Below are positions 2,105 to 26,679 of a stretch of 64,000 bases of DNA, one piece after another. Under the pieces are notes generated by a model. That model was not told the origin of the DNA. It saw only the letters and a program-made list of their open reading frames with translations, and ran no database searches. Position numbers and translations under genes: made by a program. The stretch comes from Betaproteobacteria bacterium (GTDB lineage Bacteria > Pseudomonadota > Gammaproteobacteria > Burkholderiales > CAIKXV01), in NCBI GenBank assembly GCA_947458265.1, contig CANGYF010000013.1:57301-121300 (forward strand). Direction: 5' to 3'. Position 1 is the first letter of the stretch; every line of letters begins with the position of its first letter.

Positions 2105-2313
2105 CCGGCGCCGCGCAGCCGCCGGTTTGCGAGCGCGGCTGCCATGCTGATAAGCTTGGTCCGGCGAGCGACGCTCGCATGCCACAGGGATGGCCGTGGA
2201 CAGGAAATGCGCGGGACAGCGCATGCACCGGCCGCCCGTCGCCCGCCCTCAGAACAGGGGTGCGGGAAAACACGGCGCCGCCTTGCTGGCGGCCCAACGG
2301 AGGAGAGACACGA

Positions 2314-3318
2314 ATGACGCGATCACTGTCCGTGCTGCGCCGGGTGGCGCTGCTGTCCGCGATGACCACCGGCGGCGCTGTACTGCTCACCGGCACACTG
2401 GTGCCCAATGCACAGGCACAGGCGTTCCCGGTCAAGCCGCTGCGGCTGATCCTGCCGTTCCCGCCCGGCGGTCCGACCGACATGCTCGGGCGCAGCGTCG
2501 GCGCCAAGCTGTCGGAACAGGTCGGCCAGCCGGTCACGGTCGACAACCGGCCCGGTGCCGGCGGCAACCTCGGCCTCGAGGTCGCCTCGAAGGCACCCGC
2601 CGACGGCTACACGATGGTGCTGTCCTCGCCGCTGATCTCGATCAGCCCGTCGCTGTACGCCAAGCTCAACTACGATCCGATGAAGGATCTGGCGCCGATC
2701 TCGATGCTGGCGGTGATCCAGAACATCCTGATCGTGCATCCTTCCGTCCCGGCGAAGACCCTGGGCGACCTGGTGAAGATCGCGCGCGCCAATCCCGGCC
2801 GGCTCAACTACAGCTCGGGTGGCGTGGGCACCACTGGCCACCTGGCGGCCGAACTGCTCAACAGCCTGATGAAGATCCGCACCGTACACGTGCCCTACAA
2901 GGGCTCCGGGCAGGCGCTGGTCGGCCTGATGTCGGGCGAGACCGACATGCTGATCATGGCCGCCGCCGTCGCCGCCCCACAGGTCACGGCGGGCAAGGTG
3001 AAGGGGATCGCGCTGCTGTCGGAGAAGCGGGTGCCCAACCTGCCGAACGTGCCCACCGCGGCCGAGTCGGGCGTGCAGGGTTTCGAGGTGCCGATCTGGT
3101 ACGGCATGCTGGCACCGTCGGGTACACCGCGCGAGCTGATCGGGCGGCTGAACGCCGAGATCGTCAAGGCCCTGGCCTCGCCCGACCTGCGCGACAAGCT
3201 GGCCACCTCGGGCATCGAGTCGCGCACCAGCACGCCGGAGCAGTTCGCCGAGTTCATCCGCAGCGAAGCGGTGCGCTATGGCAAGGTGATCCGCGACGCC
3301 GGGATCAAGGGCGAGTAG
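2314..3318 (+). CDS. Bug-family (TctC-like) tripartite tricarboxylate transporter substrate-binding protein
   Basis: An internal ATG at 2314 follows GGAGAG. There is a signal peptide (..PNAQAQA), then FPVKPLRLILPFPPGGPTD and VDNRPGAGG, the Bug family hallmarks. The upstream part of the 2002 ORF is a GC artefact. Confidence 0.9.
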   Translation: MTRSLSVLRRVALLSAMTTGGAVLLTGTLVPNAQAQAFPVKPLRLILPFPPGGPTDMLGRSVGAKLSEQVGQPVTVDNRPGAGGNLGLEVASKAPADGYTMVLSSPLISISPSLYAKLNYDPMKDLAPISMLAVIQNILIVHPSVPAKTLGDLVKIARANPGRLNYSSGGVGTTGHLAAELLNSLMKIRTVHVPYKGSGQALVGLMSGETDMLIMAAAVAAPQVTAGKVKGIALLSEKRVPNLPNVPTAAESGVQGFEVPIWYGMLAPSGTPRELIGRLNAEIVKALASPDLRDKLATSGIESRTSTPEQFAEFIRSEAVRYGKVIRDAGIKGE

Positions 3319-9647: not shown

Positions 9648-11378
9648 TCACGCGCGCGGCACCACCCCCCGCGTCGGCGCCCGCATGAACGCGAAATCCA
9701 CGCCGCGCTCCGCCTGCTCGATGTCTTCCATGTACAGCTTGCGATAGCCGCGCCGGTCCTCCGGCTTCGGCTCCGGCGCAACCCAGGCGGCACGACGCGT
9801 TGCCAGTTCCTCGTCGCTGACCAGCACGTCGATGCGCCGCCCCGCGGTATCCAGCCGGATGCGATCGCCATTGCGCACCAGCGCCAGCGGTCCACCCACC
9901 GCCGACTCCGGCGACACATGCAGCACGATGGTGCCGAAGGCAGTGCCGCTCATCCGCGCATCGGACACGCGCACCATGTCCTTCACGCCCTGCTCCGCGA
10001 GCTTCTTCGGGATCGGCAGGTAGCCGGACTCGGGCATGCCGGGCACGCCCTTCGGACCCGAGTTCTGCAGGACCAGGATGTCATCGGCCGCCACGTCCAG
10101 CGCCGGGTCGTCGATACGCTCGGCCAGGTCGGCCAGCGACGAGAACACCACCGCCCTGCCCTCGTGCTGCAGCAGCGGCTGCGAAGCGGCGCACTGCTTG
10201 ATGATCGCGCCGTTGGGCGCGAGGTTGCCGCGCAGCACGACCATCGCGCCGTCCTTGTAGACGGGATCGTCGAACGCATGGACCACCTTCTGGTCCCATC
10301 CGGGCGGCGCGGCATCGAGGTTCTCGCCCAGCGTGCGGCCGGTGACCGTCAATGCATCCAGGTTCAGCAGCGGCTTCAACTGGCGCATGATCGTCGTCGC
10401 GCCACCGGCTCGGTACAGGTCTTCCATGTAACCCTGCCCGGTCGGCTTCAGGTCGACCAGCACCGGCGTCTTGCGTCCCATGCGGTCGAAACCGTCGAGG
10501 TCGAGTTCGAAGCCGAGCCGTGCCGCGATCGCGGCCATGTGGATCAACGCATTGGTCGAACCACCGACCGCGAGCAGCATCGTCAGCGCATTCTCGAACG
10601 CGGCCTCGGTCATCACCTTGTCCGGCGTGAGTCCCTCGGCTGCGATCGCCACCGCCCGCGCACCGGTCTCTTCGGCATTTCGGATACGGTCGGCCATCAC
10701 CGCCGGGATCGCCGCCCCGCCCGGGATCATCATGCCCATCGCCTCGGCGCAGCAGGCCATCGTGCTCGCCGTGCCCATCACCATGCAGGTACCGGCGGTC
10801 GGGCAGAGCTTCTCCTCGATCTCGCCGATCTCGCGAGCATCGATCTCCTTGCCACGGTACTTGCCCCAGAAGCGGCGGCAATCAGTGCAGGCGCCCAGTC
10901 GCTCGCCCTTGTGGTCGCCGGTCATCATCGGGCCGGTCACCATCAGCACCGAGGGTACGTTTGCGCTGGCCGCGCCCATCAGCAGCGCCGGCACCGTCTT
11001 GTCGCAGCCACCGATCAGCACGCAGGCGTCCATCGGCTGCGCGCGGATCATCTCTTCCGTGTCGATCGCCATCAGGTTGCGCAGGTACATGCTGGTCGGG
11101 TGCGCGAACGATTCGTGCAGCGAGACCACCGGGAACTCGATCGGCAGGCCACCGGCGAGCATCACGCCGCGCTTGATGCCCTCGATCAGGTCGGGCACGT
11201 TGCGGTGGCAGGCGTTGTAGCCGGAGAAGGTGTTCGTGATGCCGATGATCGGCCGGCTCAGCGAATCTTCGGTATAGCCCATCGCCTTGATGAAGGCCTT
11301 GCGCAGGAACAGCGAGAAGCCCTGGTCGCCATAGGCGGTCAGGCCCTTCTTCATGCCGCGGGGTTTTTCGTCTGCCAT
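9648..11378 (-). CDS. IlvD/Edd family dehydratase (dihydroxy-acid / sugar-acid dehydratase)
   Basis: The start is MADEKPRGMKKGLT at 11378. The blocks NTFSGYNACHRN, IGGCDKTVPA, CPTAGTCMVMGTA and RMSGTAFG are present. Length is 576 aa. The remaining 421 upstream codons of the 997-aa ORF are an artefact. Confidence 0.9.
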   Translation of the reverse strand: MADEKPRGMKKGLTAYGDQGFSLFLRKAFIKAMGYTEDSLSRPIIGITNTFSGYNACHRNVPDLIEGIKRGVMLAGGLPIEFPVVSLHESFAHPTSMYLRNLMAIDTEEMIRAQPMDACVLIGGCDKTVPALLMGAASANVPSVLMVTGPMMTGDHKGERLGACTDCRRFWGKYRGKEIDAREIGEIEEKLCPTAGTCMVMGTASTMACCAEAMGMMIPGGAAIPAVMADRIRNAEETGARAVAIAAEGLTPDKVMTEAAFENALTMLLAVGGSTNALIHMAAIAARLGFELDLDGFDRMGRKTPVLVDLKPTGQGYMEDLYRAGGATTIMRQLKPLLNLDALTVTGRTLGENLDAAPPGWDQKVVHAFDDPVYKDGAMVVLRGNLAPNGAIIKQCAASQPLLQHEGRAVVFSSLADLAERIDDPALDVAADDILVLQNSGPKGVPGMPESGYLPIPKKLAEQGVKDMVRVSDARMSGTAFGTIVLHVSPESAVGGPLALVRNGDRIRLDTAGRRIDVLVSDEELATRRAAWVAPEPKPEDRRGYRKLYMEDIEQAERGVDFAFMRAPTRGVVPRA

Positions 11379-11624
11379 CTCGATGTCGTCCGTGGTGTGT
11401 GGCGACAAGTGTAACGCCAGCGTCAGGCCTGCTGTGGGGTGCGGCGGCGACAGGTGGCGCGAGTCGCAACGGGTGCGCATGATGCCGCGCGGACCGATGG
11501 ACATCACCGCGCGTCTGTGACAGCGCCACACGCGATACCGTAGACTCCAGCGGAGCGCGTCTCCGCCACGCGATGATCCGGTTCCCCTCACTCCGACTCG
11601 ACTGAGCGCTTTCCCACCTCGTCC

Positions 11625-13601
11625 ATGCGCGAACCAGCCTCGCCGATCCTGATGCTGGCCCGCAGCGCGAGCGACCTTGTGCTGCACCTGCTGGGCCTGC
11701 GCGGTGCAAGCCTGCAGCGCCCAGCCGAGCGGCGGCAGCACCTGCTCACGGCCGTCGCGTTCGGGTTGCCCCTGTCGCTGGGCTTCGCTCTCTTCAACCT
11801 GTACACCGGCTTTATCGTGCTGGCCGCGGTCGAGGCGCTGGCGAGCCTGCTGCTGCTTTCGGCGCTCTGGCTGCTGCGCCGCGGCGAGCGCGCGCTTGCC
11901 TGGGCGGAGTCGATCACGCTCGTCTGGGGGGGCAGCATCTCCTGCGCACTGGTAGTGTTCGGCGGCATAGAGGGCAGCGGGGCGTTGTGGATATTCGCTT
12001 ACCCCTACCTGGCGTTCTTCCTCAAGCCGCACGGCACCGCCTGGCTGATCAGCCTCGCCTGGCTCTCCAGTTGTGTTCTGCTGCTCGCAGCAGGCGATGC
12101 GATTCCAGCGGCATGGCCGTACTCCGACATGTACAAGGGGCAGATGGCAGGCGCCCTGCTGTTTGCCACGCTGGTGGCCGCAGCGTTCAACCTGGCGCGG
12201 GTTCGCTTCGCCCAGCAGCTCGAGCAGCGCGTGGCCGAGAATACGGAGAAAGCACGCGCCTACCTCGAGGAGCTGCAGTATCTCGCCACCCGCGATGCCG
12301 TCACCGCGCTGCCCAACCGGGCCGGTCTGTTGCAGTCGCTGGAGGACACCCTCGCCGCCTGCGACCCGGCGCGGGAGGTGGTCATCGCCATCAGCCTGCG
12401 CGTGGAGCGGTTCCCCGAGACGCTCAACGTGATCGGCGAGGAGGCCGGCGATCGCCTCGCGCGCCACATCGCCGGCGCGCTCGCGCTGCACCTCGATGCC
12501 GACGGCGTTCTGGGCCGCACTCGCGCCGACGAATTCGTCGCCTTCCAGCGTGCAGAGCGCGATCCGGCGACCCCCGAGCGGGTGATGACCGCGTTGCACG
12601 GCATCTCGCTCAGTTTCACCATCGACGGGCTGCCGGTGCACTTAGACCACATCGTGGGCTGCGCGGTCTTTCCCGAGCATGCGACCAGCGCTGACGACCT
12701 CCTGCGCCGCGCCGAACAGGCGATGATGCAGGCGCGCGCGCGCCGGGTCAGCCTGTGGCGCTACGACGACAAGCTCGACCAGGCCTTCCACCGCAGCACC
12801 CGCCTGTTCGGGGAGCTGCGCGAGGCCCTGGCGCGCGATGCACTGGAGGTATGGTTCCAGCCGCAGCACTGCCTGCAGACCGGCCGCGTGGTCGGTGCAG
12901 AGGCGCTGGCGCGCTGGCCACGCGCCGACGGCACCTTCGTCTCGCCGGGCGAATTCATCCCGGTGGCAGAGCAGTCGGGACTGATCAAGCCGCTGTCCGA
13001 TCTCGTCCTGCGCCGTTTCTTCGATGCAGCCACGTCATTCCACGGTCGTGGCCTACAGCTGCGCTGCTCGGTGAATCTGTCGGCGCGCAACCTCACCGAT
13101 CCCGATACGCTCGAGTTGCTGCGCCGGCTGCTCGACGAGTCAGGCCTTCCGCCCGCGCAGATCGTGGTCGAGCTGACCGAATCCTCCTTCGCCGACGATC
13201 CGCAGCACCTGATGCGTACCGCGCATGCGCTTCGCTCGCTCGGAGTGTGGCAGTCGATCGATGACTTCGGCACGGGATATTCCTCCCTGGCCTATCTTCG
13301 CGACCTTCCCGTGGACGAGTTGAAGATCGACCAGGTCTTCGTCCGCAACCTCGCCGAAGGCAGCCGATCGGCTCCTCTGGTCGAGGCCATGATCCGGCTT
13401 GCGCACACCCTGGGCCTGGAGGTCGTGGCCGAAGGCATCGAGGAGCAGACCGCCGAGCGGTTCCTCGCCGACCGGGGCTGCGATACCGGACAGGGATTCC
13501 TGTACGCGCCGGCGATGCCGCCCAACCTGTTCATCGATTACGTGCGCAGTTCGACTGCGCGCAAACCGCGGCCGCCTGCGTCGGTCAGCTCAGAGGGCTG
13601 A
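11625..13601 (+). CDS. Membrane-anchored GGDEF(degenerate)-EAL domain protein, probable c-di-GMP phosphodiesterase
   Basis: The N-terminal roughly 190 aa are hydrophobic, with multiple TM helices. The GGDEF position reads RADEF (LGRTRADEFVAF). The EAL domain has EALARW, NLSARN, ELTES, DDFGTGYSSL, KIDQ, EGIE and QGF all present. Confidence 0.85.
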   Translation: MREPASPILMLARSASDLVLHLLGLRGASLQRPAERRQHLLTAVAFGLPLSLGFALFNLYTGFIVLAAVEALASLLLLSALWLLRRGERALAWAESITLVWGGSISCALVVFGGIEGSGALWIFAYPYLAFFLKPHGTAWLISLAWLSSCVLLLAAGDAIPAAWPYSDMYKGQMAGALLFATLVAAAFNLARVRFAQQLEQRVAENTEKARAYLEELQYLATRDAVTALPNRAGLLQSLEDTLAACDPAREVVIAISLRVERFPETLNVIGEEAGDRLARHIAGALALHLDADGVLGRTRADEFVAFQRAERDPATPERVMTALHGISLSFTIDGLPVHLDHIVGCAVFPEHATSADDLLRRAEQAMMQARARRVSLWRYDDKLDQAFHRSTRLFGELREALARDALEVWFQPQHCLQTGRVVGAEALARWPRADGTFVSPGEFIPVAEQSGLIKPLSDLVLRRFFDAATSFHGRGLQLRCSVNLSARNLTDPDTLELLRRLLDESGLPPAQIVVELTESSFADDPQHLMRTAHALRSLGVWQSIDDFGTGYSSLAYLRDLPVDELKIDQVFVRNLAEGSRSAPLVEAMIRLAHTLGLEVVAEGIEEQTAERFLADRGCDTGQGFLYAPAMPPNLFIDYVRSSTARKPRPPASVSSEG

Positions 13602-13609
13602 GGTCTTTC

Positions 13610-16378
13610 TCAGCGCGAAGCGGCGCCGCTTCGTACCCCGCCTTCGCTCTCGTCGATCAGTGATCGCGCAAGCTCGCGATCCACCGGCAGGACAAGTCGT
13701 TCGGCGTCGCGCGCTGCCGCGCTCCACAGCGCACGGGCGCGTCCTGACCGTCCCGCCAGCGCCTCGAGCCGCCCGCGAGCGATCAACAGCGCCGGCCGCG
13801 CCACCTGCACATGGCGGGCAAATCGGGCAAAGGCGTCGAGCGCGTGGCGCGCCTGCGCGAGCGCATCTCGCCGCCGCAAGCGGGATTCACGCATCGGGGT
13901 CGCCGCGGCCTCCGCCGAGGCGACCGCAGCAAGCGCGACGCGGGTGTCGAGCGCCGCCCGCGCACCGCCGAGAACGGAGAAGCTCACCGGAAGCCTATCG
14001 CGAAGCATCTGCAGCGCGAGGCTCGCCGTCTCGCCCGCGCCCGGGTCAGCCTCTGCGAGCATTACCGCCGAGAGCAACCCAGCCCGTTCGATGTCGGCGA
14101 GCCCGTCGTGTGCCGGAACCGGCACGCCCTCGAGGTGACGGCGGGCTTCGCGCACATCGCCACGAGCCCAGGCTGCGCGTGCGAGCCCCAGCTGGCCCCA
14201 GCCCAGGCTCTGCGCATCCGTGCGCTCCTGTGCGATCCGGCACAGGCGTTCATACCAGCGGCGCCCCGCCTCCTGGGCCCCGGCACGACTGCGCAGCAGG
14301 CCCAGCATGAGCGCGGCTACCGATGCCCAACGGCCATCCCCGACGCGGCGCGCAAGGCGGTAGGCCTCCAGGGCGTCGACCACCGCGCGCTCGCCTCCGG
14401 AGGCATTGGCGCGGTACATCGCGGAGAACAGGAGCACCTGCACGAGCGTGGCCGGATCGCCGCCGCGCCGGGCCGCCTCGATCGCGCGCTCGGCGCGGCG
14501 CAGCGCAGCCTGTTGCAGGCCGAGCGCGCCGCAGCCGGTGGCGATCGCTGCGTCGATGATGGCCGACTCGCGCCCCGGGGAGGACCGTCCGACCACGCGC
14601 AGGCAACGCAGGGTCGCCCAGGTCATCAGTGGCGTATCCACGCGCAGGTAGGCGGTGTTCGAGAGGCGGATCAGGGCGACAGCGATGTCGCGCTCCTTGA
14701 CGCTCGCCGCCCGGCTACGCCGGCCGACCGACGGCAGACGCAAGCCGAACACCGCAGCATCGCGCACCGCCGAGGCGAGTCGCCAGCTGCGGGACTGCGG
14801 CACGCGGTGGCCCGCGAGGTCGAGCGCTGCGCTCAGGTCGCGCTGCGCGCCCGCGAGGTCGCCCAGTTGCAGCTCGCTGTAGCCACGAAGGCGCAGGCAC
14901 TCGACCCGCGCTTGATCGACGCGGTCGCGATCGACGCCGGGGAAGGTGCCGCCGTCGGACTCCAGCCATTCGACGGCCTCACCGAGATGGACGACCGCTT
15001 CGGCGTGCGCATACCGCTGCATCGCCTCGCGACCCGCGGTACGCAGCCAGTCCACCGCACGCCACGCCTCGCCAGCGCAGCGCCAGTGATCGGCGATCCG
15101 CGCGGCTACCGTATCGTCGCCGGCGCGCGCGCTTGCCTCCGCGACGGAGGCAGCCGCCGCGTGCAGCGCGCGATACCGGGCCGGATCGGCCGCGGCGACC
15201 ACGGCCCGGCGAAGATAGCCATGACGAAACCGGTAGGTCATTCCGCCAGCCTCGGGCTCGATGAGGGCACGCTCGACGCAGGCGGCGAGCGACGCATCCA
15301 CCGCCGCAGCGTCTGTCCCACCCACCAGGGCGAGCCACTGCGCCGTGAACGGGCCATGCGCGACGCTGGCCGCGAGGAGAAGGTCGCACTCTGGGGCCGA
15401 CAGTCGCTGCAGTCGCGCAGCCAGCAGACCGTTCAGGTCGTCCGCGCGGCTCACGCCGAGCAGCGGGTCGAGGCGGTTACCCGCCGCGAGGCAGGCGTGG
15501 CCATCGCGCACGACGATCTGCCCGCGCTCGAGGAGCAGCCGCAGCAGCTCGACCGCGTGCAACGGAAAACCCGAGGACGCCTCGCCGATGGCCTCGCGTA
15601 ACGCCTGGGAGGGTGGCACGTTGCCGAGCACCGGTCCGAGCAGTCGCCCGAGGTCCGCCTCCCCGAGCGGACCGAGCACGCGATTGATCGTGCCCTCGTC
15701 GCGCAGCAACCGGTCCGAAGCCGTGGTGAGTGTCTGCAGACCCAGCACCACCAGCAGTCCGGAGGTGCGCGTGCGGACCCGCTCCAGCAGGCGCCAGGAT
15801 GCGGAATCCATCCAGTGCGCGTCGTCGATCGCCAGCACGAGCCCGGTCTCGCCCGCCGCCCGCCCGACCAGGTCGCCGACCAGATCGGCCAACGCGTCGG
15901 CGCGTCCTTCCGGTGAGAGCGCCTCGCTGCGCGCGGTCTCGGGCAGACCGGTGACCAGCAGGTCGCCGAGTACCGGCAGTAGCTCCCGCTGACGGGCTGC
16001 GTCCTCGCCCCCATCGAACAGCGCCTGAAGCAGCCGGCCCTCAGACCGTGGGCCGGCGGCCTGCGAGACCGTCTGGTGCCAACGCGCCGCCAGGGCGGGC
16101 AGCATTCCCGCGACCAGGCTGCGCCAGACCCGGTAGGGCACGTGGCGATCGGCCTCCGCGGCAGTGGTGCCGAACCAGCCCAGAGCATTCGCCGCGCAGC
16201 GCGAACGGAACGCCTCCAGCAGGCGGGTCTTGCCCAGCCCGGGCTCGCCGTGCACCGCGAGTCGCTGCGTCCGCTCTCCTGGCCTGAGGTGCCCGAGGCA
16301 CTCGGCAAACACCCGCTGCTCGATGTCGCGACCAGCCAGGGCAACCGCGCCGGCCGTCGGAAAGATCCTGCTCACCAT
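13610..16378 (-). CDS. STAND-type P-loop NTPase (AAA_16-like) with C-terminal TPR-like repeats; no recognisable effector or HTH domain
   Basis: Walker A is GEPGLGKTRLL near residue 45 and Walker B is LVLAIDDAHWMD. A long helical-repeat C-terminal region follows. The ATG at 16378 lies 33 nt after the upstream gene's stop. Confidence 0.8.
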   Translation of the reverse strand: MVSRIFPTAGAVALAGRDIEQRVFAECLGHLRPGERTQRLAVHGEPGLGKTRLLEAFRSRCAANALGWFGTTAAEADRHVPYRVWRSLVAGMLPALAARWHQTVSQAAGPRSEGRLLQALFDGGEDAARQRELLPVLGDLLVTGLPETARSEALSPEGRADALADLVGDLVGRAAGETGLVLAIDDAHWMDSASWRLLERVRTRTSGLLVVLGLQTLTTASDRLLRDEGTINRVLGPLGEADLGRLLGPVLGNVPPSQALREAIGEASSGFPLHAVELLRLLLERGQIVVRDGHACLAAGNRLDPLLGVSRADDLNGLLAARLQRLSAPECDLLLAASVAHGPFTAQWLALVGGTDAAAVDASLAACVERALIEPEAGGMTYRFRHGYLRRAVVAAADPARYRALHAAAASVAEASARAGDDTVAARIADHWRCAGEAWRAVDWLRTAGREAMQRYAHAEAVVHLGEAVEWLESDGGTFPGVDRDRVDQARVECLRLRGYSELQLGDLAGAQRDLSAALDLAGHRVPQSRSWRLASAVRDAAVFGLRLPSVGRRSRAASVKERDIAVALIRLSNTAYLRVDTPLMTWATLRCLRVVGRSSPGRESAIIDAAIATGCGALGLQQAALRRAERAIEAARRGGDPATLVQVLLFSAMYRANASGGERAVVDALEAYRLARRVGDGRWASVAALMLGLLRSRAGAQEAGRRWYERLCRIAQERTDAQSLGWGQLGLARAAWARGDVREARRHLEGVPVPAHDGLADIERAGLLSAVMLAEADPGAGETASLALQMLRDRLPVSFSVLGGARAALDTRVALAAVASAEAAATPMRESRLRRRDALAQARHALDAFARFARHVQVARPALLIARGRLEALAGRSGRARALWSAAARDAERLVLPVDRELARSLIDESEGGVRSGAASR

Positions 16379-16411
16379 GGGGGTCGGGGGCGTGCCGACA
16401 GGCCCTTGCCG

Positions 16412-19400
16412 TCAGCCACGCAGCATGACGCCCGGCTGCAGGACGAAGTCGAGGTCGCAACGCGCGGCGGCGAGCGCGCGCGCCGCGCCACCAGCCTCGA
16501 GGACAAGCCCCAGATCGGTCGCGATCGGGTGGCTGGCTACCCCGGCGAAGCGGACCACGTAGCTGTCCGGCAGGAACGACCAGCTGCGCAAGGGCACATT
16601 GAACGGCGCCGCCCGCGCGAGGACGAGGTGACTGAGCGACGAGGCCGGATCGCCGGACAGTGCCGGTACCTGCCTCAGGAACACGAAATCGAGCTGCTCG
16701 GAAAGCGCCGCATGGAGGAAGGCGAGCGCCGTCCTCGAACGCGCGCCTGGGCGGGTCGCCAGTCTGGACAGTCGCTCCAGGGCAGAGGGTCGCGTCAGAG
16801 GGTCTCCCCGCTCGCAGACGACCACTTCGGTCGGCTGGAATCCGCCTCCCGCGACCTCTCGGGCGGGCAACCGAACGGATAACCGATCCGGCTCTTCCAC
16901 GCCCGAGGGCACGTGCAGATCCGCCACCTCTTTCGGATAGCCGTAGTGCTCGCGTCCCGCCGCCACCGCCATGCCACTGCCAGCGAAGATGTAGGGAATC
17001 AGCATCGCGCACTCGATGCCGGAGCGCCGTTCGCGCACCGGTACCCAGAAGGCGGCCTCGTCGTAGTCGAACTCGCCCTCCTGCGGACGCGGCACGGAAT
17101 GCATCCCGCGCAGCGACTGGAAGGTGAGCACGACCAGGTCCGACAGCGGCTCGAACCGGAACTGGCGGCCGCTCGGGTCGTTGAGCGATCGGTCGCAGAG
17201 CGCCTGCAGCGCGGTCATCTCGCCCTGCAGGTAGAACAGGAACGCGCGGCCCTCGCGACAGCGCCAGGGCGGTGGCGGCGGATTGGCGGCACCGCGGCGC
17301 ACCGCGCCGGGTTGCACCCGAGCGAACGGGGAGGTCGGCGGAAAATCCGTCTCCCCGAACAACCGGGCCGGATAGCCGCCGATCGCGCGCGCGGCCTGCA
17401 GCCCGCCGAGCACCGCCGACTCGACACACCCGTAATTCAGACCGTTGAGCGTCCAGTCACCCGACAGCAACAGGTTGTCGAAGCCGGACTCATCGGCGCG
17501 AAGACGCAGGCGGGTCGTGTCCGCGCGCGACTGGACGTAGCGGGCGCTCGGATCGACATTGGCGGAGAACCACTGGTGCTCGAGGCGTTTCTCCTCGGGC
17601 GTGCCTGGCGGCGCGTGCAGCAGCCGGTGGTCGAGCGCCTGCGTCCCCGGATAGGTACCCTTCGGCCACAGTTCGCCCGTGTGCTGCACGAACCAGTCGC
17701 GCGCGCAGCGCCGGGCCTCGTCGAGCGCCCGCTCGCTGTAGTCGGCGGGAACCCCCTCGCCCGGGGGCAGCAGCCCGCGCGCGTCATCGGCCATCACGCC
17801 GCAGAAATAGGCGAGGCTCCGCGGCTCACGGCCATCGCCGTAGCCACGCGCCCCCCAGTTCTCGCGCTCGAGCAGCTCCGTAAGGTCGGCCCAGGTGTCG
17901 AACGGCTCGCCGTAGGCGCTGACCACCGGCGACGGCAGGTGCCAGCCCAGCTGCTCGAGCGTGCGATCGACCCACAGTTGCGCGGCCTGGGTCCTCACGG
18001 TCGCGATGCCAGCCACCATGTCCCGGAAGCGGGTATTCGCCGCGCACAGGGTCGGGCACAGGTACGCCAGAGCCCCCACCGGAACCCCGAGCACCACTCG
18101 ATCGAAGTCATGGCCCGCGCGCAAGGTGAGGGTCTCGACGTCCGGCCAGTCGGTATAGGCCGACTCGAGGTCGAAGGTACGGTCGGCGAAGTGCGAACGC
18201 ATTGCCTCGCCCTCGGCGAGTTGCGCCCAGTCGGGCAGCGAGGGCCACCCGGGCACCCCGCGGTAGTCCCTGAGCGGCTGGTACTCCTGCCCGCCGACGA
18301 TGGTCGCCTGGCGACCGATCAGGATCTCGTCGACCTGGCGGCCGGCACGCGTCTTGAGTTCGAGCGCCCGGTGGAAGAAGCGGAAGCGCACGCCGCGGCG
18401 CCGGAGTACCTCGTAGAGTGGCGCGAAGATGGTGTCACCCATGCCGGCGCGCATCTCCCAGAACACCGCGCCTCGGGAGCAGAGCACGAGCCGCAGCAAC
18501 ATGCGCACTGCGACGCCGGCGGCCAGATTGGGCCGCCGGGTGTCGCCCTGCTCGAAGGCGAACACGTAGCTGTAGGCCGACCTGAGTGTCGGGTGATCCA
18601 GCGCTGCGTCGCTGGCCCCGTGGTGCCGAAGCCACACGGACAGCTCCCACGCGTCAATCCGGTCGAAGCCCTCCTCCATCACGCCGTCGGCGAGCATTCC
18701 GATCATCATGGTGCACAGCAATTCCGCCTGGCCCAGCAGTTGCCCCAGCGGCGACGTGGACACGCCAGCATCGGCCAGTTGTCGCTGTATCCACCGCTGC
18801 ACCAGGCGCAGCCGATCGGCGAGCGCGCGAAACCGCGCGCGCGCATCGGCCGTGGTCACCCGCCGATCGCGCGCCGCAAGTGCATCGTGGGCCCGCCGGG
18901 CCGCGACGAAGGCGCGCATCACGCGCCAGGCGAGGAAGCCGAGCCCGATCCGCGACAGCCAGACCGACAGCGGAGCGCGTTCGCCGCCGGTGGCGTGGTC
19001 GAACATCCACTCACCGACCGACTGGCCGGCCGGCTTGCCGGCATCGGTCACGCTCGCGTGGGTCTGAAGGTAGCGCAGCGACCACGGAACGATCTCGCAG
19101 AACAGCTCCCATGGGCTGCGGACGTCCGGACCCGGGGATGCGTAATCGTCCGGGATAAAGTCCCCGGGCTGTCCGGGATCCTGCGGCAGGTAGCCGTTCC
19201 AGAATATTGCGTCGCCACGCAACTCGCTGCCGAGGCCGGCGAAGTGACGCGGCTTGAACGCGGTGTGCAGGGTCGCTATCGGGGCCGACGGCGGCCGATC
19301 GAGTTCGGCGAAGGCCTTGCGCATCATCCAGAACGCGTTCTCGTAGAAGCCGCTCCACAGGTGCAGGCCGTGCTCCTCGATCCGGTCGCCCCGAGCCTCG

Positions 19401-19555
19401 TTGCGCCCGGCAGCCCCCTTGCCGCCCAGCCGCGAGCCGGGCTGGTAGACCGTTATTTCGTAGCGATCCTGCCAGCCGGATCGATCGGTCAGGGCGAACA
19501 CGGTGGCCATGGCCGCGCAGCCGCCACCCAGTACCACGATACGTTCCTTGGCCAT
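16412..19555 (-). CDS. Fusion protein: FAD/NAD(P)-binding amine-oxidase/desaturase-like flavoprotein (COG3349-like) plus C-terminal acetoacetate-decarboxylase (ADC)-like domain
   Basis: The N-terminus RIVVLGGGCAAMATVFAL...GGKG....EHGLH is the dinucleotide-binding fold of the amine-oxidase/phytoene-desaturase class. The late motif LLLSGDWT..GLNYGCVESAVLGG is the class C-terminal FAD contact. The last roughly 330 aa carry YDEAAFWVPV...IPYIFAGSGMAVAAGREHYGYPK, the ADC-family hallmark. A GGAGA Shine-Dalgarno lies upstream. Confidence 0.8.
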   Translation of the reverse strand: MAKERIVVLGGGCAAMATVFALTDRSGWQDRYEITVYQPGSRLGGKGAAGRNEARGDRIEEHGLHLWSGFYENAFWMMRKAFAELDRPPSAPIATLHTAFKPRHFAGLGSELRGDAIFWNGYLPQDPGQPGDFIPDDYASPGPDVRSPWELFCEIVPWSLRYLQTHASVTDAGKPAGQSVGEWMFDHATGGERAPLSVWLSRIGLGFLAWRVMRAFVAARRAHDALAARDRRVTTADARARFRALADRLRLVQRWIQRQLADAGVSTSPLGQLLGQAELLCTMMIGMLADGVMEEGFDRIDAWELSVWLRHHGASDAALDHPTLRSAYSYVFAFEQGDTRRPNLAAGVAVRMLLRLVLCSRGAVFWEMRAGMGDTIFAPLYEVLRRRGVRFRFFHRALELKTRAGRQVDEILIGRQATIVGGQEYQPLRDYRGVPGWPSLPDWAQLAEGEAMRSHFADRTFDLESAYTDWPDVETLTLRAGHDFDRVVLGVPVGALAYLCPTLCAANTRFRDMVAGIATVRTQAAQLWVDRTLEQLGWHLPSPVVSAYGEPFDTWADLTELLERENWGARGYGDGREPRSLAYFCGVMADDARGLLPPGEGVPADYSERALDEARRCARDWFVQHTGELWPKGTYPGTQALDHRLLHAPPGTPEEKRLEHQWFSANVDPSARYVQSRADTTRLRLRADESGFDNLLLSGDWTLNGLNYGCVESAVLGGLQAARAIGGYPARLFGETDFPPTSPFARVQPGAVRRGAANPPPPPWRCREGRAFLFYLQGEMTALQALCDRSLNDPSGRQFRFEPLSDLVVLTFQSLRGMHSVPRPQEGEFDYDEAAFWVPVRERRSGIECAMLIPYIFAGSGMAVAAGREHYGYPKEVADLHVPSGVEEPDRLSVRLPAREVAGGGFQPTEVVVCERGDPLTRPSALERLSRLATRPGARSRTALAFLHAALSEQLDFVFLRQVPALSGDPASSLSHLVLARAAPFNVPLRSWSFLPDSYVVRFAGVASHPIATDLGLVLEAGGAARALAAARCDLDFVLQPGVMLRG

Positions 19556-19586
19556 CTTCGTCTCCAGGGGTGCGAGGGTCAGCAGC

Positions 19587-20918
19587 TCACAACCGCAGGC
19601 GCCAGGCGACGCCGATCGTGGTCACCGAAGGGCTGCGTGCGACGCCCGACATCTGTACGGTCGTGGCCAGCGGCGTGCCGCCGTAGAAGCTGCGCGACAG
19701 GTCGATGCGGCCATCCTCGAACATCGCGTGCTTGAGCGCCAGATCGATCGTCGAACGGGCGCCTGCGCGCAGGCTCGCTCCGGCGGTGAGCCACGTGCGC
19801 GCACCGTCGGGGAAGGTGGTGTCGCGCAACCCGTCGGTGGTCGGCGTCTGCTCGCGCCGCACGCCCGCCCGCAGCACGAGCGACTCGCTGCGCTGCCACT
19901 GCAGTCCCAACGATACAGCGGAGGCGTCCCGGTAGCCGCTCGGGCGCACGAGGTCGGCACTGCCGTCGGCGAGCCGCACGCGAAGATCGCCGAACCGGCC
20001 CCAGCCGTACGTATCCAGCTGCGCGAAAACGGTGAGGGACTGGCTGGCCGTCCAGGCCACGCCGAGGCCAGCCATCGCCGGCATCCGCAGCTCGGTGGTC
20101 GCGCCCACCGTACCGTTCGCGCCCGCCAGCAGCCCGGTGAGGCCCTGTATGGTATTCGTGCCGCTGATCGCGATGTCCATCCCCGAGCGGTAATGTGCGC
20201 CCACCCTCAGCGCAGGCGTGGCCGCCCAACTCACCCCGAAGTGCATGCCGACACCCGAGCCGCTTCCGCGCAGGCGGGTGCTGCCATCCGTGGACGCGGT
20301 CGGCACAACGGCGAATGGATCCGGCAGCGCGGACTGGAGATCCGATTGCGCATGCTGCCAGTCGATGCCGCCACCGATCGACAGGGTATCGGTCAGCAGA
20401 CGCGCCGCCGAGACGGTCAGGTTCACGGTCTCGAGCGACACGCGGGTGGAATCGTAGCGTCCGAACCACTCGGGGCTGAAGGTCGAGGACAGCCCGAACG
20501 CAGAGGTGAGCCCCGCTGCCAGTGCGGTCCGTCCGTCGGAAAGGCGGTGCACCACGAACAGGTTCGGCACCGGGGTCGGGTCGGTGGGGTTGTCGAAGCC
20601 CGTGCCCGGATAGGGCTGAGCGACAAGACCCGTGCCCGGGCTCCTCGCGGTCGACCCCAGGTCGCGCAACGAGGCCCGAGGCGTCAGCACCTGCGCCCCC
20701 AGGGACCACTCGGTGCCGCTCCCGTAATTCGTACCGGGCGACAGAAGCGCAGCGGGGTTGAAGTATGCGGCGGCTGGATCGGCCGTGTCGACCACCGTGC
20801 CGGCACCAGCCCGCCCGATCGCCAGAACGCTCTGCTGGTTGACGAACCAGCCGGTCGCCCCGACTGCGCCGGGCATCCCGAGCAGGAGCAGAGCAAGACA
20901 TCTGAAACAAACCGTCAT
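19587..20918 (-). CDS. FadL/TodX-family outer-membrane transporter for hydrophobic compounds
   Basis: The start is MTVCFRCLALLLLGMPGAVGATG at 20918, a signal peptide. QSVLAIGRAGAG...DPAAAYFNPAAL is the typical FadL N-terminal hatch motif. The C-terminus has a beta-barrel pattern ending VAWRLRL. Confidence 0.85.
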   Translation of the reverse strand: MTVCFRCLALLLLGMPGAVGATGWFVNQQSVLAIGRAGAGTVVDTADPAAAYFNPAALLSPGTNYGSGTEWSLGAQVLTPRASLRDLGSTARSPGTGLVAQPYPGTGFDNPTDPTPVPNLFVVHRLSDGRTALAAGLTSAFGLSSTFSPEWFGRYDSTRVSLETVNLTVSAARLLTDTLSIGGGIDWQHAQSDLQSALPDPFAVVPTASTDGSTRLRGSGSGVGMHFGVSWAATPALRVGAHYRSGMDIAISGTNTIQGLTGLLAGANGTVGATTELRMPAMAGLGVAWTASQSLTVFAQLDTYGWGRFGDLRVRLADGSADLVRPSGYRDASAVSLGLQWQRSESLVLRAGVRREQTPTTDGLRDTTFPDGARTWLTAGASLRAGARSTIDLALKHAMFEDGRIDLSRSFYGGTPLATTVQMSGVARSPSVTTIGVAWRLRL

Positions 20919-21154
20919 CTGGAAACCCCACGATCCGTTGAGCGGCAGGCCTTCCCCGGACATCGACCCGGCATTCGCCGCTGACGACACCGGCGCGACC
21001 CGAGGCTGGTGCCCTCCAGCCTCTTCCGTGCTTGATCCGCACAATACGGCAATATCATGCGTTTTCCGCGTGGAGTTTGGCACGGACACTCCGGCTGATT
21101 CAAGTTCAGCCGCCCACACGGCCGATGGGCTCCCGGCAGGCGCTGCGGGCGGCG

Positions 21155-21552
21155 CTACCTCTCGCGCAGCGACTCGTGCAGCGTCCGGGTGATCGGCTTG
21201 GTGAGAAACTCCCAGATCGTCCGCTCCCCGGTCTTGATCTCGACGGTGCCGGTCATCCCGGGCTGGATCTCCAGCCGCTCGCCTGCCCGTGGAACACGCC
21301 GTAGATCGCGTAGTCGAACGCGTCGAGCTTGACCGTCGCCGGCAGGTGACGGCGCACGACCCCGCCGATCGTCGTGAGGCGCACGTTGCGCACCACCCCG
21401 TCCATCGGCGCGCGGACATCGGTCAGCACGAGCTCCTCGCGCCGCTGCGCCATCACCTGCCGAATACCCGAGAGCTCTTCCTGCGCCTTGGCGAGATCGG
21501 CGTGGATGCCCTGCGGTCCGGCACGGGGAACGCTTGATTCGTCGGCGACCAC
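21155..21552 (-). pseudogene. HlyD-family (type I secretion membrane-fusion protein) C-terminal relic, frameshifted and internally deleted
   Basis: Two overlapping frames carry HlyD-type blocks. One has DVRAPMDGVVRNVRLTTIGGVV and ATVKLDAFDYAIYGV..G. The other has LEIQPGMTGTVEIKTGERTIWEFLTKPI. The N-terminal two thirds of the gene are absent. Confidence 0.6.
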
Positions 21553-21660: not shown

Positions 21661-22308
21661 CTAGGCGCTGGGACGCTTCCTGCGCAGCAGGCCGAACAGC
21701 GCCAGCCCGCTGGCAGTCAGCAGCGCACTGCCGGGCACCGGGATGTTTTCAACGACCACGCCCTCGACCGTCGTCTGTCCGAGCATGAAACCCGAGTTCG
21801 GCGCGACGATGCCGGTTAACCCGTTCAGGCTGAAAACGGACACGCCAAAGGTACCGCTCAACGTGCCGTTGGTGCCCGGCCCGATGGAGGTCGGCGCCCA
21901 ACTCAGCATGATGGGGCTGACATCGCTGAAGATCGTTCCGCCGGCGGATGATCCGACGAACTTGCCCGTTCCGCCTTCGTTGAGGTCCTGAATGACCAGG
22001 TCGAAAGTGAACGCATTGAACGTGGCGCCAGTGCCCAGATCCTGGGTTGAGCAGCCGACGCACGCGAGCGTGAAGATTCCGTAGTTCACGTTCGAGGGGG
22101 TTCCGACGGTGGCGGTCGGCGCGGCAGCGTAGGTCAGCGTGGCAGCGGCGCCCGATGAACTGTTCAACGTCAGGCTCGTACCACCGAAGCCAGTGCCGGG
22201 GTTATTGGTAGTGAAGGTGACGGTGGCGGCGCTGGCGGCGCCGCTCAATACAGCGACGACGGCGCCCGCAATCGACAGGGCGCTGGTCAGCAGAGGTTTG
22301 CATCGCAT
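21661..22308 (-). CDS. PEP-CTERM-type sorting-domain secreted protein
   Basis: There is a signal peptide (..LSGAASAA) and a Gly/Thr/Ser-rich body. The C-terminus IPVPGSALLTASGLALFGLLRRKRPSA has the motif, TM helix and basic tail layout of exosortase substrates. Confidence 0.75.
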   Translation of the reverse strand: MRCKPLLTSALSIAGAVVAVLSGAASAATVTFTTNNPGTGFGGTSLTLNSSSGAAATLTYAAAPTATVGTPSNVNYGIFTLACVGCSTQDLGTGATFNAFTFDLVIQDLNEGGTGKFVGSSAGGTIFSDVSPIMLSWAPTSIGPGTNGTLSGTFGVSVFSLNGLTGIVAPNSGFMLGQTTVEGVVVENIPVPGSALLTASGLALFGLLRRKRPSA

Positions 22309-23254: not shown

Positions 23255-24232
23255 ATGAGGGTTACATCCGCGGTGGCCACCGTGCTGCTGTGCATGCTGC
23301 TGCCTGGCGCTCCCGCGCACGCCCAGCAGAAGGCCGGCGACTTTCCGGCACGTGCCGTGCGACTGGTCGTCCCGTATCCGCCCGGTGCATCGAACGACAT
23401 CGTCGCGCGACTCCTCGGGCAGAAGCTGTCCGAGGCCTGGGGCCAGCAGGTGGTGATCGACAACCGCAGCGGCGCGGGGGGCCTCGTCGGCGCGGAGATC
23501 GTCGCGCGGGCCAGTCCCGACGGCTACACGCTGCTGATGACCAACCCGGGATCCAATGCGATCAACTTCGCGCTGCGCGCGAAGACCCCTTACCGCCCCG
23601 AGGACTTCGCCTCGGTGACGCTGCTCGGCTGGTCGCCGATCATGCTGCTGACCAGCGCGACGTTCCCGGCCGCGAGCATGAACGAACTCATTGCCATCGC
23701 GAAGGCGAAGCCGGGCCAGCTTACCGGTGGATCGTCGGGTGCGGGCGGCAGCAGCCACCTCGCGCTCGAGTACTTCAAGATGCTCTCGGGCACCGACATC
23801 CTGCACGTGCCGTACAAGGGTGCGGCACCTGCGATCACCGACATGATCGCAGGACAGGTGAGCATCATCTTCACCACGCCGGTCACCGCGCAGGGGATGA
23901 TCCGCGCGGGCAAGATCAAGGCACTCGCCGTCGCTGGCAACCGGCGGCTCGACGTGTTCCCCGACGTGCCGACCACCAGCGAGCAGGGGATGAAGGGCTA
24001 CGACGTCAACATCTGGTTCGGCATCTCCGCGCCCGCCGGCACGCCGCGCCCGCTGATCCTGCGGATCGCCCGCGACCTGCACACAGCCACCGCGTCGGCC
24101 GATGTGAAGGAGCGTTTCGCCGGACTGGGACTGGAGCCGCAGGTCGGCACGCCCGAGGCGTTCGACCGCATCATTCGCGAGGACATCGAGCGTTGGAGCA
24201 AGGTCGTGAAGGCGGCGAAGCTCGCGCCGTGA
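23255..24232 (+). CDS. Bug-family (TctC-like) substrate-binding protein
   Basis: A signal peptide is followed by FPARAVRLVVPYPPGASND and IDNRSGAGG. A GGAGGAG Shine-Dalgarno lies upstream. Confidence 0.9.
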   Translation: MRVTSAVATVLLCMLLPGAPAHAQQKAGDFPARAVRLVVPYPPGASNDIVARLLGQKLSEAWGQQVVIDNRSGAGGLVGAEIVARASPDGYTLLMTNPGSNAINFALRAKTPYRPEDFASVTLLGWSPIMLLTSATFPAASMNELIAIAKAKPGQLTGGSSGAGGSSHLALEYFKMLSGTDILHVPYKGAAPAITDMIAGQVSIIFTTPVTAQGMIRAGKIKALAVAGNRRLDVFPDVPTTSEQGMKGYDVNIWFGISAPAGTPRPLILRIARDLHTATASADVKERFAGLGLEPQVGTPEAFDRIIREDIERWSKVVKAAKLAP

Positions 24233-24304: not shown

Positions 24305-25270
24305 TCACGGCTGAGTCTGCCGCCAGCGCGAGTCAGGGTTGAAACGCTGGATGCTGGCGGCGATCTTCGCGCCGTGGGGCCCCAGGTTGCGCTCGTAGAT
24401 CACGCCATCGTGGTTCACGATGAAGGACATGACACCGGATTGGCCGTAGCTTACCGGCCAGGCGATCAGCGCAAAGCCGCTGACCATCCGGTCGCCGATC
24501 AGGTAGCTGGTGGCGCCACCGGGTGCCTGCGGGCCCTGTCCGGTGAGGATCCGGAAGTGGTAGCCGTGGTAGCCCGTCCCGGGCCTGTTGGGCAGGAAAG
24601 CCTGCCCCAGCGGACTTTCGTCGCCGAGATCGGGGCTCCAGATGAGACCATCGCGCTTGCCCGGGCTGCTGACCAGGCGGCGCGCATACTGCAGTGCGCC
24701 GCTGCCGATCCGGTCGACCGTGGCGTACTCGCGCTGTGCATCCAGGTAGGCCAGCATCGCCCGCATGGCCGAGCGCTCGTTGTTGCCGATACGCTGTTCC
24801 AGGACGGCTCTCAGGCCACCGCTCACGTCGAACTGCCAGCGTCCGTCGGTGCGCTGAAGCAGCGGTATCGGCAGCACCCAGTCGTCGGCACCCACTGACA
24901 ATTCGGCCCTGCGGCCATCGAGCATCCTGACCGAGCGCGTCTGTCGGGCCTTGTCCACGAAGGCGCGCACGTCGGCGGGATCCATGCGATCGAGCGGTAC
25001 CAGGGTCTGCGCGTCTTTTCCCAGCACCTTCGTCAGCGCCGTCCGATCGTTGGCGGCGACGGCCTCTATCAGAGCATCGGCCGCCGCCTCGGCCGTCGCA
25101 TACGGTGCCTGCGCCAGTGCAGCGCCGTGCCCGGCAAGCAGGCAGACCAGCGCCGCAACGCGGGCAATCCGGCGCAGCCAAGGCGCAAGGGTCGCTCGAA
25201 CCGGTGTCGACGCTGCCGAGGGCAAGTCGCCGGTGGGGTGTCCTGTCATCATCGGGGCTCCTGCCTTCAA
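24305..25270 (-). CDS. DUF2950-family secreted protein
   Basis: A signal-like segment is followed by blocks such as AYLDAQREYA, GYHGYHFRIL and SGFALIAWP..YG.SGVMSF, which I recognise as DUF2950. The start overlaps the stop of the upstream DUF3300 gene. The exact start is uncertain. Confidence 0.8.
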   Translation of the reverse strand: MKAGAPMMTGHPTGDLPSAASTPVRATLAPWLRRIARVAALVCLLAGHGAALAQAPYATAEAAADALIEAVAANDRTALTKVLGKDAQTLVPLDRMDPADVRAFVDKARQTRSVRMLDGRRAELSVGADDWVLPIPLLQRTDGRWQFDVSGGLRAVLEQRIGNNERSAMRAMLAYLDAQREYATVDRIGSGALQYARRLVSSPGKRDGLIWSPDLGDESPLGQAFLPNRPGTGYHGYHFRILTGQGPQAPGGATSYLIGDRMVSGFALIAWPVSYGQSGVMSFIVNHDGVIYERNLGPHGAKIAASIQRFNPDSRWRQTQP

Positions 25271-26529: not shown

Positions 26530-26679
26530 TGTCGGTCTCCACCCTGCATCGAGCGCTCCCTGCCGACGCGCCCCGCTGCATCGAATCTACACGATATCGT
26601 GAGTAATGAGACCCGCTCGATCGGGGAAAACCGCATGCCCCTTGGTGCATGCACGCTTTCACTTTGGTACCCTTCCAGC

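Follow-up and report, generated by a model that had tools for sequence, protein, structure and literature searches.

Organisation and conservation of the operon

The DNA analysed here is a stretch of 64,000 nt from the genome assembly of a Betaproteobacteria bacterium (GCA_947458265.1, contig CANGYF010000013.1, positions 57,301–121,300), referred to below as the window, and all coordinates are counted from its first letter. Three genes lie on its minus strand between positions 13610 and 20918, encoding a FadL-family outer membrane channel of 443 aa (19587–20918), a 1047-aa fusion of a flavoprotein with an acetoacetate decarboxylase (ADC)-like domain (16412–19555) and a 922-aa AAA_16 STAND NTPase (13610–16378). 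Direct reading of the spacers showed 31 nt between the FadL and fusion genes (19556–19586, minus strand), with a GGAGA ribosome-binding site 6 nt ahead of the fusion ATG, and 33 nt from the fusion stop codon to the STAND ATG (16379–16411, minus strand). These coordinates and spacers are exactly those claimed in an earlier reading of the locus made from its letters alone (the sequence-only reading). No recognisable Shine-Dalgarno sequence precedes the STAND ATG in the 33-nt spacer, and no terminator-like hairpin was found in either intergenic gap. The sole minus-strand terminator-like hairpin of the operon stretch (15572–15584) lies inside the STAND gene, and matches of this kind were no commoner in the operon than in shuffled sequence. 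The three genes are predicted to form a single transcription unit with a conserved, operon-like layout.

More than 2,300 homologs of the fusion protein were found in the database, and the contigs of the closest were fetched. The order FadL-fusion-STAND, with short gaps, was present in two close relatives with different flanking genes (L081 and L083, whose fusions are 93% and 67% identical to that of the window), and also in a sister clade at 47–50% identity (the P0014 contig, L084, L085, L086 and L089) and in the GTDB locus L001, where the flanks are unrelated. Three other loci (L082, L088 and L090), which are without the upstream flank or the upstream gene, have the fusion and STAND genes. 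The arrangement thus recurs in every related contig with sufficient flank, as the synteny check proposed with the sequence-only reading required, and it is unlikely to be due to chance since order and short gaps are kept despite the different flanks. The complete triad was also found in a verrucomicrobial metagenome-assembled genome (MAG; L005) on one strand in another order, namely STAND, ADC, flavoprotein and FadL.

The ratio of nonsynonymous to synonymous substitutions (dN/dS) against L081 was 0.15 for the FadL gene, 0.13 for the fusion gene and 0.25 for the STAND gene, the corresponding values against L083 being 0.21, 0.32 and 0.32. Values in this range (0.13–0.32) indicate that all three genes, the short STAND included, are kept by purifying selection.

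The FadL-family channel

The channel gene corresponds to the 443-aa form of a longer open reading frame (ORF; 19587–21419), with the best start at the ATG at 20918, directly before the signal peptide; 443 aa is also the called length of the channel in the 93%-identical relative. The N-terminus reads MTVCFRCLALLLLGMPGAVGA and is hydrophobic at residues 3–21 with a hydropathy peak of 1.85, as judged by hydropathy and not by a dedicated signal-peptide predictor. Pfam Toluene_X (PF03349) matched with an E-value of 1.7e-56 and 191.9 bits (cut-off 29.7) over profile positions 9–393 of 421, and this nearly full-length match together with the signal peptide agrees with the hydrophobic-compound outer membrane channel that had been proposed. 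The NCBIfam FadL model (NF007988) gave 2.6e-24 and 85.7 bits, below its equivalog cut-off of 585, for which reason the protein is best assigned as a member of the FadL/OMPP1/TodX family and not as a FadL ortholog.

Genes of this family (todX, tbuX) head well-known hydrocarbon-degradation operons. The channel of the window resembles the FadL, TodX and TbuX channels in its match to this 14-strand-barrel family over almost the whole profile, in its signal peptide and in its place as first gene of an operon with an enzyme for a presumably hydrophobic substrate. It differs in that no downstream degradative pathway is linked to it and that it scores well below the FadL equivalog. The likeness bears on a nutritional explanation, in which the operon would carry out the first step in degrading a hydrophobic carbon or nitrogen source, such as a long-chain amine, a beta-amino or keto fatty acid or a terpenoid, with the STAND protein as a pathway-specific transcriptional regulator. 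This explanation is taken up again below with the genomic partners of the enzyme.

The flavoprotein::ADC-like fusion enzyme

A FAD/NAD(P)-binding domain like that of phytoene desaturase and the amine oxidases occupies residues 1–745 of the fusion (17321–19555, minus strand). Its dinucleotide-binding motif, VVLGGGCAAM, spans residues 7–16, and the domain was matched by Pfam NAD_binding_8 and Amino_oxidase (24.3 bits, cut-off 19.8). The structure of the fusion was modelled by AF2 with an alignment of 47 sequences (pLDDT 86, pTM 0.72) and searched against the PDB with Foldseek. The best match of the N-terminal domain was rice phytoene desaturase (PDS; 5mog, E 7e-17, TM(target) 0.77), followed by L-amino-acid oxidases, protoporphyrinogen oxidase (PPOX), the nicotine oxidoreductase NicA2 and monoamine oxidase with TM scores of ~0.6–0.7. 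The likeness to PDS and to the amine-oxidase/PPOX fold thus consists of the best structural match with its two-domain PDS/MAO architecture, the GxGxxA motif, the Amino_oxidase match and the assignment by JGI to COG3349, which is the COG of the cyanobacterial phytoene desaturase (PMC4558948). On the other hand, identity to 5mog is ~12%, and the domain contains a helical insertion of ~265 aa that is absent from PDS, seen as an alignment of ~730 columns against a 467-residue target and as long helices at ~148–330 of the model. It also differs from enzymes of this fold in that, in the family of the window, it is always paired with an ADC-like domain.

Profile searches at the sequence level reached only the start of the domain. 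The PDB sequence profile search matched the first ~50 residues (protoporphyrinogen oxidase, E 0.008), and the equivalog models for HpnE (39 bits against a cut-off of 283, 6e-10) and zeta-carotene desaturase (20 bits against 622) aligned with the first ~80 residues, neither equivalog level being reached. No transmembrane helix was predicted in the fusion or in the STAND protein, and both are expected to be cytoplasmic or peripheral for this reason. As to chemistry, the modelled fold would favour desaturation of a carbon-carbon bond, since PDS is the best fold match and a squalene synthase-like gene accompanies the enzyme in cyanobacteria (see below); the alternative would be oxidation of an amine or amino acid followed by keto-acid chemistry.

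The C-terminal domain (residues 755–1047; 16415–17293, minus strand) belongs to the ADC superfamily (ADCSF), with a Pfam ADC match of 33.2 bits (cut-off 29.8) and Foldseek matches to the ADC folds 3bgt, 3cmb, 3c8w, MppR (4jm3) and Swit_4259 (5upb) (E 1e-10 to 6e-14, TM(target) 0.57–0.70). Together with the PDS-like match, this upholds the description of the 1047-aa protein as a two-module enzyme. An invariant motif, GRE-x-x-G-x-P-K (G867-R868-E869-x-x-G872-x-P-K875; Lys875 codon at 16931–16933), provides five of the few invariant positions among 27 ADC-like domains and is invariant too in 47 full-length fusions. It aligns with GGRELWGFPKK of the Chromobacterium violaceum ADC (3bgt) and with the PKK of Sbi00515 (4zbo), so that Lys875 falls on the first lysine of the PKK pair, which forms the Schiff base in these enzymes. 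The ADC fold and the motif GRE-x-x-G-[FY]-P-K at this lysine are features of the superfamily (the C. violaceum and C. acetobutylicum ADCs, Sbi00515, MppR and Swit_4259), from which the domain differs in its low identity (13–18%), an extra helical segment and the second lysine, which is not conserved. The adjacent second lysine of a true acetoacetate decarboxylase (family I ADC) is missing from the fusion. A further difference is the fused or adjacent flavoprotein, a partner that no solved member of the superfamily has.

The two domains were found in both fusion orders among the top 120 homologs, 48 being flavoprotein-ADC and 19 ADC-flavoprotein, with 53 flavoproteins alone; in Janthinobacterium (L012) a single ORF has the ADC domain first. 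A split form, in which a gene for an ADC-like protein of ~320 aa is followed in another frame by one for a flavoprotein of ~750 aa, is present in Pseudoalteromonas, Bacteroidota, a Spartobacteria MAG and a Lysobacterales MAG, and overall the ADC-like domain is fused or directly adjacent in 68 of 83 loci. Occurrence as fusions in both orders and as split adjacent genes suggests that the two domains are obligate partners that act together. Some relatives (loci L039, L057 and L070; proteins P0016 and P0019–P0021) have two or three tandem flavoprotein paralogs or double-length proteins of ~1,390 aa. The latter match the flavoprotein domain only, have no ADC-like domain and were taken as putative tandem flavoprotein fusions. 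It should also be noted that the Polyangiaceae fusion of L004 (12221–13192) has an in-frame stop in its ADC-like part, representing either a pseudogene or a sequencing error of the MAG.

The STAND NTPase

The third protein was matched by Pfam AAA_16 with 64 bits (cut-off 32.6), and its Walker A (GEPGLGKT, residues 44–51, 16226–16249) and Walker B (LVLAIDDAHW, residues 180–189, within 15806–15841) motifs are both intact, as is its reading frame, whose stop-to-stop limits permit at most 11 extra N-terminal codons. The earlier description as an AAA_16 and TPR protein holds for its first part; for the second, the sole match was a sub-threshold TPR_4 (19.2 bits, cut-off 27), with some orthologs matching TPR_12. 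A single-sequence AF2 model was all-helical with a pLDDT of 44.5, too low to be used. No helix-turn-helix (HTH), cyclase, kinase or other output domain was detected by Pfam in the 922 aa. The TOMM kinase/cyclase fusion model (TIGR03903) aligned with the nucleotide-binding oligomerisation (NOD) region only, with 112 bits against an equivalog cut-off of 706.

The STAND regulators of the MalT and LAL type and the mycobacterial cyclase-ATPase-HTH proteins of the Rv0386 type consist of a P-loop NOD module and a sensor arm of helical repeats. The window protein is comparable in its AAA_16 NOD module, which may be followed by a similar helical arm, and in being encoded beside the genes that it presumably controls. 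Its orthologs additionally possess a class-III cyclase-homology region at the N-terminus, with a LuxR/GerE HTH encoded directly downstream. The differences are that the window STAND has neither HTH nor cyclase nor kinase domain, and that the orthologs have a tandemly duplicated cyclase region and an HTH encoded by a gene of its own.

These orthologs, from the sister clade and the more distant L090, are proteins of ~1,330–1,365 aa with Guanylate_cyc and AAA_16 domains, encoded by the gene directly after the fusion. The window STAND is 29–30% identical to them over ~900 aa and aligns with residues 424–1331 of the ortholog of L084, in which the N-terminal 430 residues contain two cyclase-homology stretches. 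A small GerE/LuxR HTH gene comes after the cyclase-STAND gene in L084 (64 bits), L085, L086, L088, L089 and the P0014 contig, and in the sister clade a divergent Crp-family gene (cNMP_binding and HTH_Crp_2) follows as well. The window lacks a Crp homolog, and its operon has no GerE gene nearby. By parsimony, the lineage of the window probably lost the cyclase domain together with the GerE and Crp genes and retained the NOD-repeat core under selection. This STAND, described earlier as domain-poor, is not intrinsically so, its orthologs having a tandem cyclase domain and accompanying regulator genes that are lost in the window lineage. By analogy, the cyclase-STAND, GerE and Crp proteins of the sister clade look like a self-contained cyclic-nucleotide circuit, that is, a regulator of the MalT/LAL or Rv0386 type in pieces.

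It could be argued that in the window lineage the STAND is decaying or has taken on another role and has lost its functional tie to the enzyme, leaving a unit that is effectively FadL and enzyme. The loss of the cyclase domain and of the GerE and Crp genes, the missing Shine-Dalgarno sequence and a dN/dS against L081 (0.25) above that of the other two genes are in line with this. Against it, the 922-aa frame and both Walker motifs have stayed intact and dN/dS is well under 1 in comparison with two relatives. The short form is moreover common to the 93% and 67% relatives, which argues that it has long been retained, and decay or re-purposing is considered improbable.

The convergent gene for a GGDEF-EAL protein (11625–13601) may be considered a candidate partner of the window STAND, nothing specific having been found that connects the two. 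In L089, a cNMP_binding-GGDEF-EAL protein (1252–2931, minus strand) is encoded two genes 5' of the sister-clade operon with its cyclase-STAND, and could link cyclic nucleotide monophosphate (cNMP) to cyclic di-GMP (c-di-GMP) signalling. An equivalent role as cNMP-binding relay was considered for the GGDEF-EAL protein of the window and was rejected, because the two proteins are homologous over their GGDEF-EAL portions only and that of the window begins with a weak MASE-like membrane region.

Genomic partners of the enzyme family

To survey the neighbourhood of the enzyme more widely, one genome per GTDB species was scanned, which gave 80 loci with flanks of up to 10 kb, and neighbours were found with domain-specific hidden Markov models (HMMs). 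A STAND NOD module was present in 24 of the 80 loci and a seven-helix sensor of the 7TMR-DISM type in 31, both being present in two loci. A sensor lies within 3.5 kb in 41 of the 62 loci whose flanks reach at least 3 kb on each side (STAND in 16, 7TMR-DISM in 26). Sensor genes cluster tightly around the enzyme. In flanks of up to 10 kb, 53 of the 56 are no more than 3.5 kb away and 21 no more than 100 bp away, and this internal control makes chance clustering unlikely. Outside the clade of the window, FadL was found in five and TonB-dependent receptors in eight of the 80 species loci. The general partner of the enzyme is a signalling protein, either STAND or 7TMR-DISM, and not FadL. The proposed survey of whether fusion homologs co-occur across genera with FadL and AAA_16/TPR genes thus pointed to a signalling partner of either type (41 of 62), with FadL in five of 80.

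The neighbouring STAND proteins are of two kinds, namely Pkinase-AAA_16-TPR proteins of 1,300–2,400 aa with additional GAF, PAS, histidine kinase, receiver (REC), Hpt or C-terminal cyclase domains (Pfam), and cyclase-AAA_16 proteins. The 7TMR-DISM receptors (RetS/LadS/NicD type) hold the place of the STAND, 0–3 kb from the enzyme, in Shewanella, Janthinobacterium, Duganella, Pseudoalteromonas, Dyella and Deinococcus. They are GGDEF proteins in Shewanella, Dyella and Deinococcus maricopensis and hybrid histidine kinases in Janthinobacterium, Duganella, Massilia and Pseudoalteromonas. Unlike the STAND proteins, they are membrane receptors with a periplasmic DISMED2 domain and not cytoplasmic NTPases, and none is encoded in the window. 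In the complete genome of the cultured strain D. maricopensis DSM 21211 (L091; CP002454, 2368587–2371691), a gene for an ADC-flavoprotein fusion precedes a MerR regulator gene and a convergent gene for a 7TMR-DISMED2/7TM-GGDEF sensor.

This spectrum of partners bears on the nutritional explanation introduced above. Besides the position of FadL-family genes at the head of hydrocarbon operons, it could draw on the fact that STAND regulators of the MalT/LAL type control catabolic regulons and on the GerE HTH gene that directly follows the STAND gene in the sister clade. However, a linked CoA ligase, beta-oxidation or ring-cleavage enzyme or any other downstream enzyme is missing from the window and does not recur in related loci, and most of the partner sensors act through global outputs (GGDEF, hybrid histidine kinase, Ser/Thr kinase, cyclase) in place of a dedicated DNA-binding domain. 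A nutritional role is accordingly regarded as unlikely.

An anti-phage or other conflict system, with an Avs-like STAND sensor and an enzymatic effector, was also considered, given that AAA_16/TPR STAND proteins are frequent in defence systems and that the STAND of one relative showed a weak BrxC/BrxD match. None of the three proteins had a match in PADLOC-DB 2.0 at E ≤0.01. Furthermore, the STAND proteins of relatives have housekeeping signalling domains (Pkinase, GAF, PAS, histidine kinase, cyclase), the alternative partners are 7TMR-DISM membrane sensors, and the operon lies in DNA of even GC content between core-type genes. A role in defence appears highly improbable.

In cyanobacteria, a squalene/phytoene synthase-like (SQS_PSY) gene lies inside the unit, which in Microcoleus (L003) runs ADC, SQS_PSY, flavoprotein and STAND, and which has such a gene also in Anabaena cylindrica (L087). 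Outside cyanobacteria, no second enzyme was found to travel recurrently with the unit in the 80 loci. The SQS_PSY gene suggests another possibility, that the enzyme pair tailors an isoprenoid or polyene made by the cell itself, comparable to SQS-like proteins with HpnE or to CrtC/CrtD, with the FadL protein taking part in envelope lipid traffic. PDS as the best fold match and the match of the N-terminus to HpnE at 6e-10 would fit such a biosynthetic role. A lead at the level of the family only is all0736, an ADC family protein called an NXD1 homolog, which was found in the carotenoid-rich lipid droplets of Anabaena and is a carotenoid-related lipid-droplet protein (PMC12923008). Set against this, neither the annotated stretch of the window nor any non-cyanobacterial locus yielded a prenyl or terpene synthase, the transporters that recur beside the enzyme in Proteobacteria are of the uptake type (FadL, TonB-dependent receptors), and all0736/NXD1 is absent among the homologs of the window's ADC subfamily. 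A direct link of this subfamily to the plant and cyanobacterial NXD1 proteins was sought and rejected, as the homologs of the ADC-like partner from Anabaena included no plant or PCC 7120 protein. Endogenous biosynthesis is held to be unlikely, to about the same degree as catabolism.

Proposed function

It is proposed, at roughly even odds, that the operon in its overall design represents a module for the uptake, conversion and sensing of a lipophilic small molecule. A lipophilic substrate is suggested by PDS as best fold match, by the SQS-like gene in the cyanobacterial unit and by the FadL and TonB-dependent receptor genes. By extension from the established behaviour of FadL, TodX and TbuX, the channel would pass a hydrophobic compound across the outer membrane, and the cytoplasmic fusion would modify it in two coupled steps. 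The first may be an FAD-dependent dehydrogenation, either C-C desaturation or C-N oxidation, in the PDS-like N-terminal domain. The second, judged from fold and motif, may be Schiff-base chemistry on a carbonyl at Lys875, such as a decarboxylation or a reaction of the hydratase or aldolase type. The STAND protein could act as a ligand-responsive ATP switch in the manner of MalT, with substrate or product and ATP leading to oligomerisation and output. In the orthologs, the output would come from the built-in tandem nucleotide-cyclase domain and be read by the neighbouring Crp-type and GerE-type regulators. The window STAND, having lost the cyclase domain and both regulator genes while its core is under purifying selection, would have to act via a partner encoded by another gene or on the enzyme itself.

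The sensing, activation or neutralisation of an environmental lipophilic cue or toxicant is a more likely purpose of this proposed module than use of the compound as food, since no catabolic gene is linked to the enzyme and its partners are outer membrane transporters and proteins that signal globally (c-di-GMP, cNMP, phosphorelay, Ser/Thr kinase). This proposal agrees with the first of two interpretations offered in the sequence-only reading, namely that a hydrophobic compound is imported and oxidatively processed while the STAND protein serves as ligand-gated regulator, which fits the PDS fold match, the cyanobacterial SQS-like gene and the neighbouring FadL and TonB-dependent receptor genes. 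The second interpretation, in which the enzyme is the effector of the STAND protein, is unlikely in general, because the sensors of relatives have nucleotide, kinase or phosphorelay outputs; it may apply to the truncated form of the window only.

A number of observations weigh against a module of this kind. One third of the well-flanked loci (21 of 62) are without a nearby sensor, and these share no other recurrent neighbour. Since STAND kinases are numerous in Myxococcota and Cyanobacteria and enrichment was gauged within the flanks and not genome-wide, some of the STAND adjacencies in these phyla could be due to chance. Adjacency to FadL is limited to a minority of lineages. The fold match separates C-C desaturases (PDS, TM 0.77) poorly from amine and amino-acid oxidases (TM 0.6–0.7), and only the first lysine of the PKK pair is retained, the position after Lys875 being E in the window and variable in the family. 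Lastly, as the window STAND has no output domain, no Shine-Dalgarno sequence and a somewhat relaxed dN/dS (0.25), its role may differ from that of its orthologs.

A more specific version of the proposed module, put forward only tentatively, is that the two enzyme domains produce, activate or break down a lipophilic signal, possibly resembling a terpenoid, which is read by the adjacent STAND or 7TMR-DISM receptor and drives a c-di-GMP, cNMP or phosphorelay output. If correct, this would represent a new signalling system across many phyla, in which the window STAND would be a variant using protein-protein contacts alone.

Searches of the literature on the fusion, on ADCSF with FAD, on ADC with 7TMR-DISM and on COG3349 found no paper on the enzyme family or on its association with sensors. 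With no match in PADLOC and no characterised cluster in the literature, it can still be said, as in the sequence-only reading, that no known pathway or defence system was found to match the triad. As judged by profile scores, all parts belong to known superfamilies and none reaches the equivalog level (FadL, HpnE, TOMM kinase/cyclase); what is new is an uncharacterised enzyme family and an unusual form of STAND in a layout of channel, enzyme and STAND regulator. The flavoprotein/ADC-like family extends over Proteobacteria, Myxococcota, Bacteroidota, Cyanobacteria, Verrucomicrobiota, Acidobacteriota, Chloroflexota, Planctomycetota and Deinococcota, and no assigned reaction was found for it among its more than 2,300 homologs. 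The identity of its substrate would annotate thousands of entries now called NAD(P)-binding protein or acetoacetate decarboxylase family protein, offer a ligand candidate for two large orphan receptor classes (STAND kinases/cyclases and 7TMR-DISM sensors) and show the function of a STAND NTPase that has no effector domain. Cultured carriers, namely D. maricopensis, Janthinobacterium, Duganella, Shewanella and Pseudoalteromonas luteoviolacea, allow this to be tested directly.

Leader region and surrounding window

The leader or promoter region comprises 238 nt 5' of the FadL gene (20919–21156, minus strand) and contains one block conserved with the 93% relative (…GCATGAtAtTGCCGTATTGTGC…). No Rfam match was obtained in the leader or the operon, and no riboswitch or other RNA was found; a simple promoter scan gave no sigma-70 match in 20919–21156. 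Palindromes of the Crp type were sought 5' of FadL in seven loci and discarded, as the best had three mismatches and none was conserved.

Upstream of the leader lies a relic of a HlyD-type membrane-fusion protein, a broken frame at ~21157–21540 (minus strand) that encodes the C-terminal part and ends 238 nt 5' of the FadL start. It reads …APMDGVVRNVRLTTIGGVV…, followed by a frame break and then …GTVEIKTGERTIWEFLTKPITRTL…. At the matching position, the 93% relative has no such relic and instead a 74-aa Gly-zipper gene. The next ORF (21661–22308, minus strand) encodes a secreted protein of 215 aa with a signal peptide and a PEP-CTERM-like C-terminus (…VPVPGSALLTASGLALFGLLRRKRPSA, followed by the stop codon). 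As regards the HlyD relic and PEP-CTERM gene that had been named here, the broken frame and the tail-like C-terminus are visible in the sequence, and Pfam gave no match for either, so that both are without HMM support. These genes had been taken to suggest an accessory neighbourhood, an idea that found no support since GC content is even throughout the window (0.64–0.73 in 2-kb bins) and the flanks are ordinary chromosomal genes (IlvD, TctC, GGDEF-EAL).

Further upstream, a gene for a TctC-family receptor (23255–24232) was found, together with a DUF2950 and DUF3300 pair divergent from a histidine kinase (24305–26529, minus strand; 26500–28677, plus strand), a neighbourhood that suggests a Burkholderiales-type chromosome. 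At the other end of the operon, the STAND gene meets the convergent gene (11625–13601, plus strand) for the GGDEF-EAL protein, which has 658 aa and a weak MASE-like N-terminus. Their stop codons are 8 nt apart, and a terminator-like hairpin lies at 13585–13601; this arrangement is kept in the 93% relative. Three long ORFs (13811–15601, plus strand; 16913–19735, plus strand; 9648–12641, minus strand) are antisense to or overlap real genes and were discarded as artefacts of high GC content. In the last case, the real gene runs from 9648 to ~11414 on the minus strand and encodes IlvD/Edd, in place of the 997-aa ORF.

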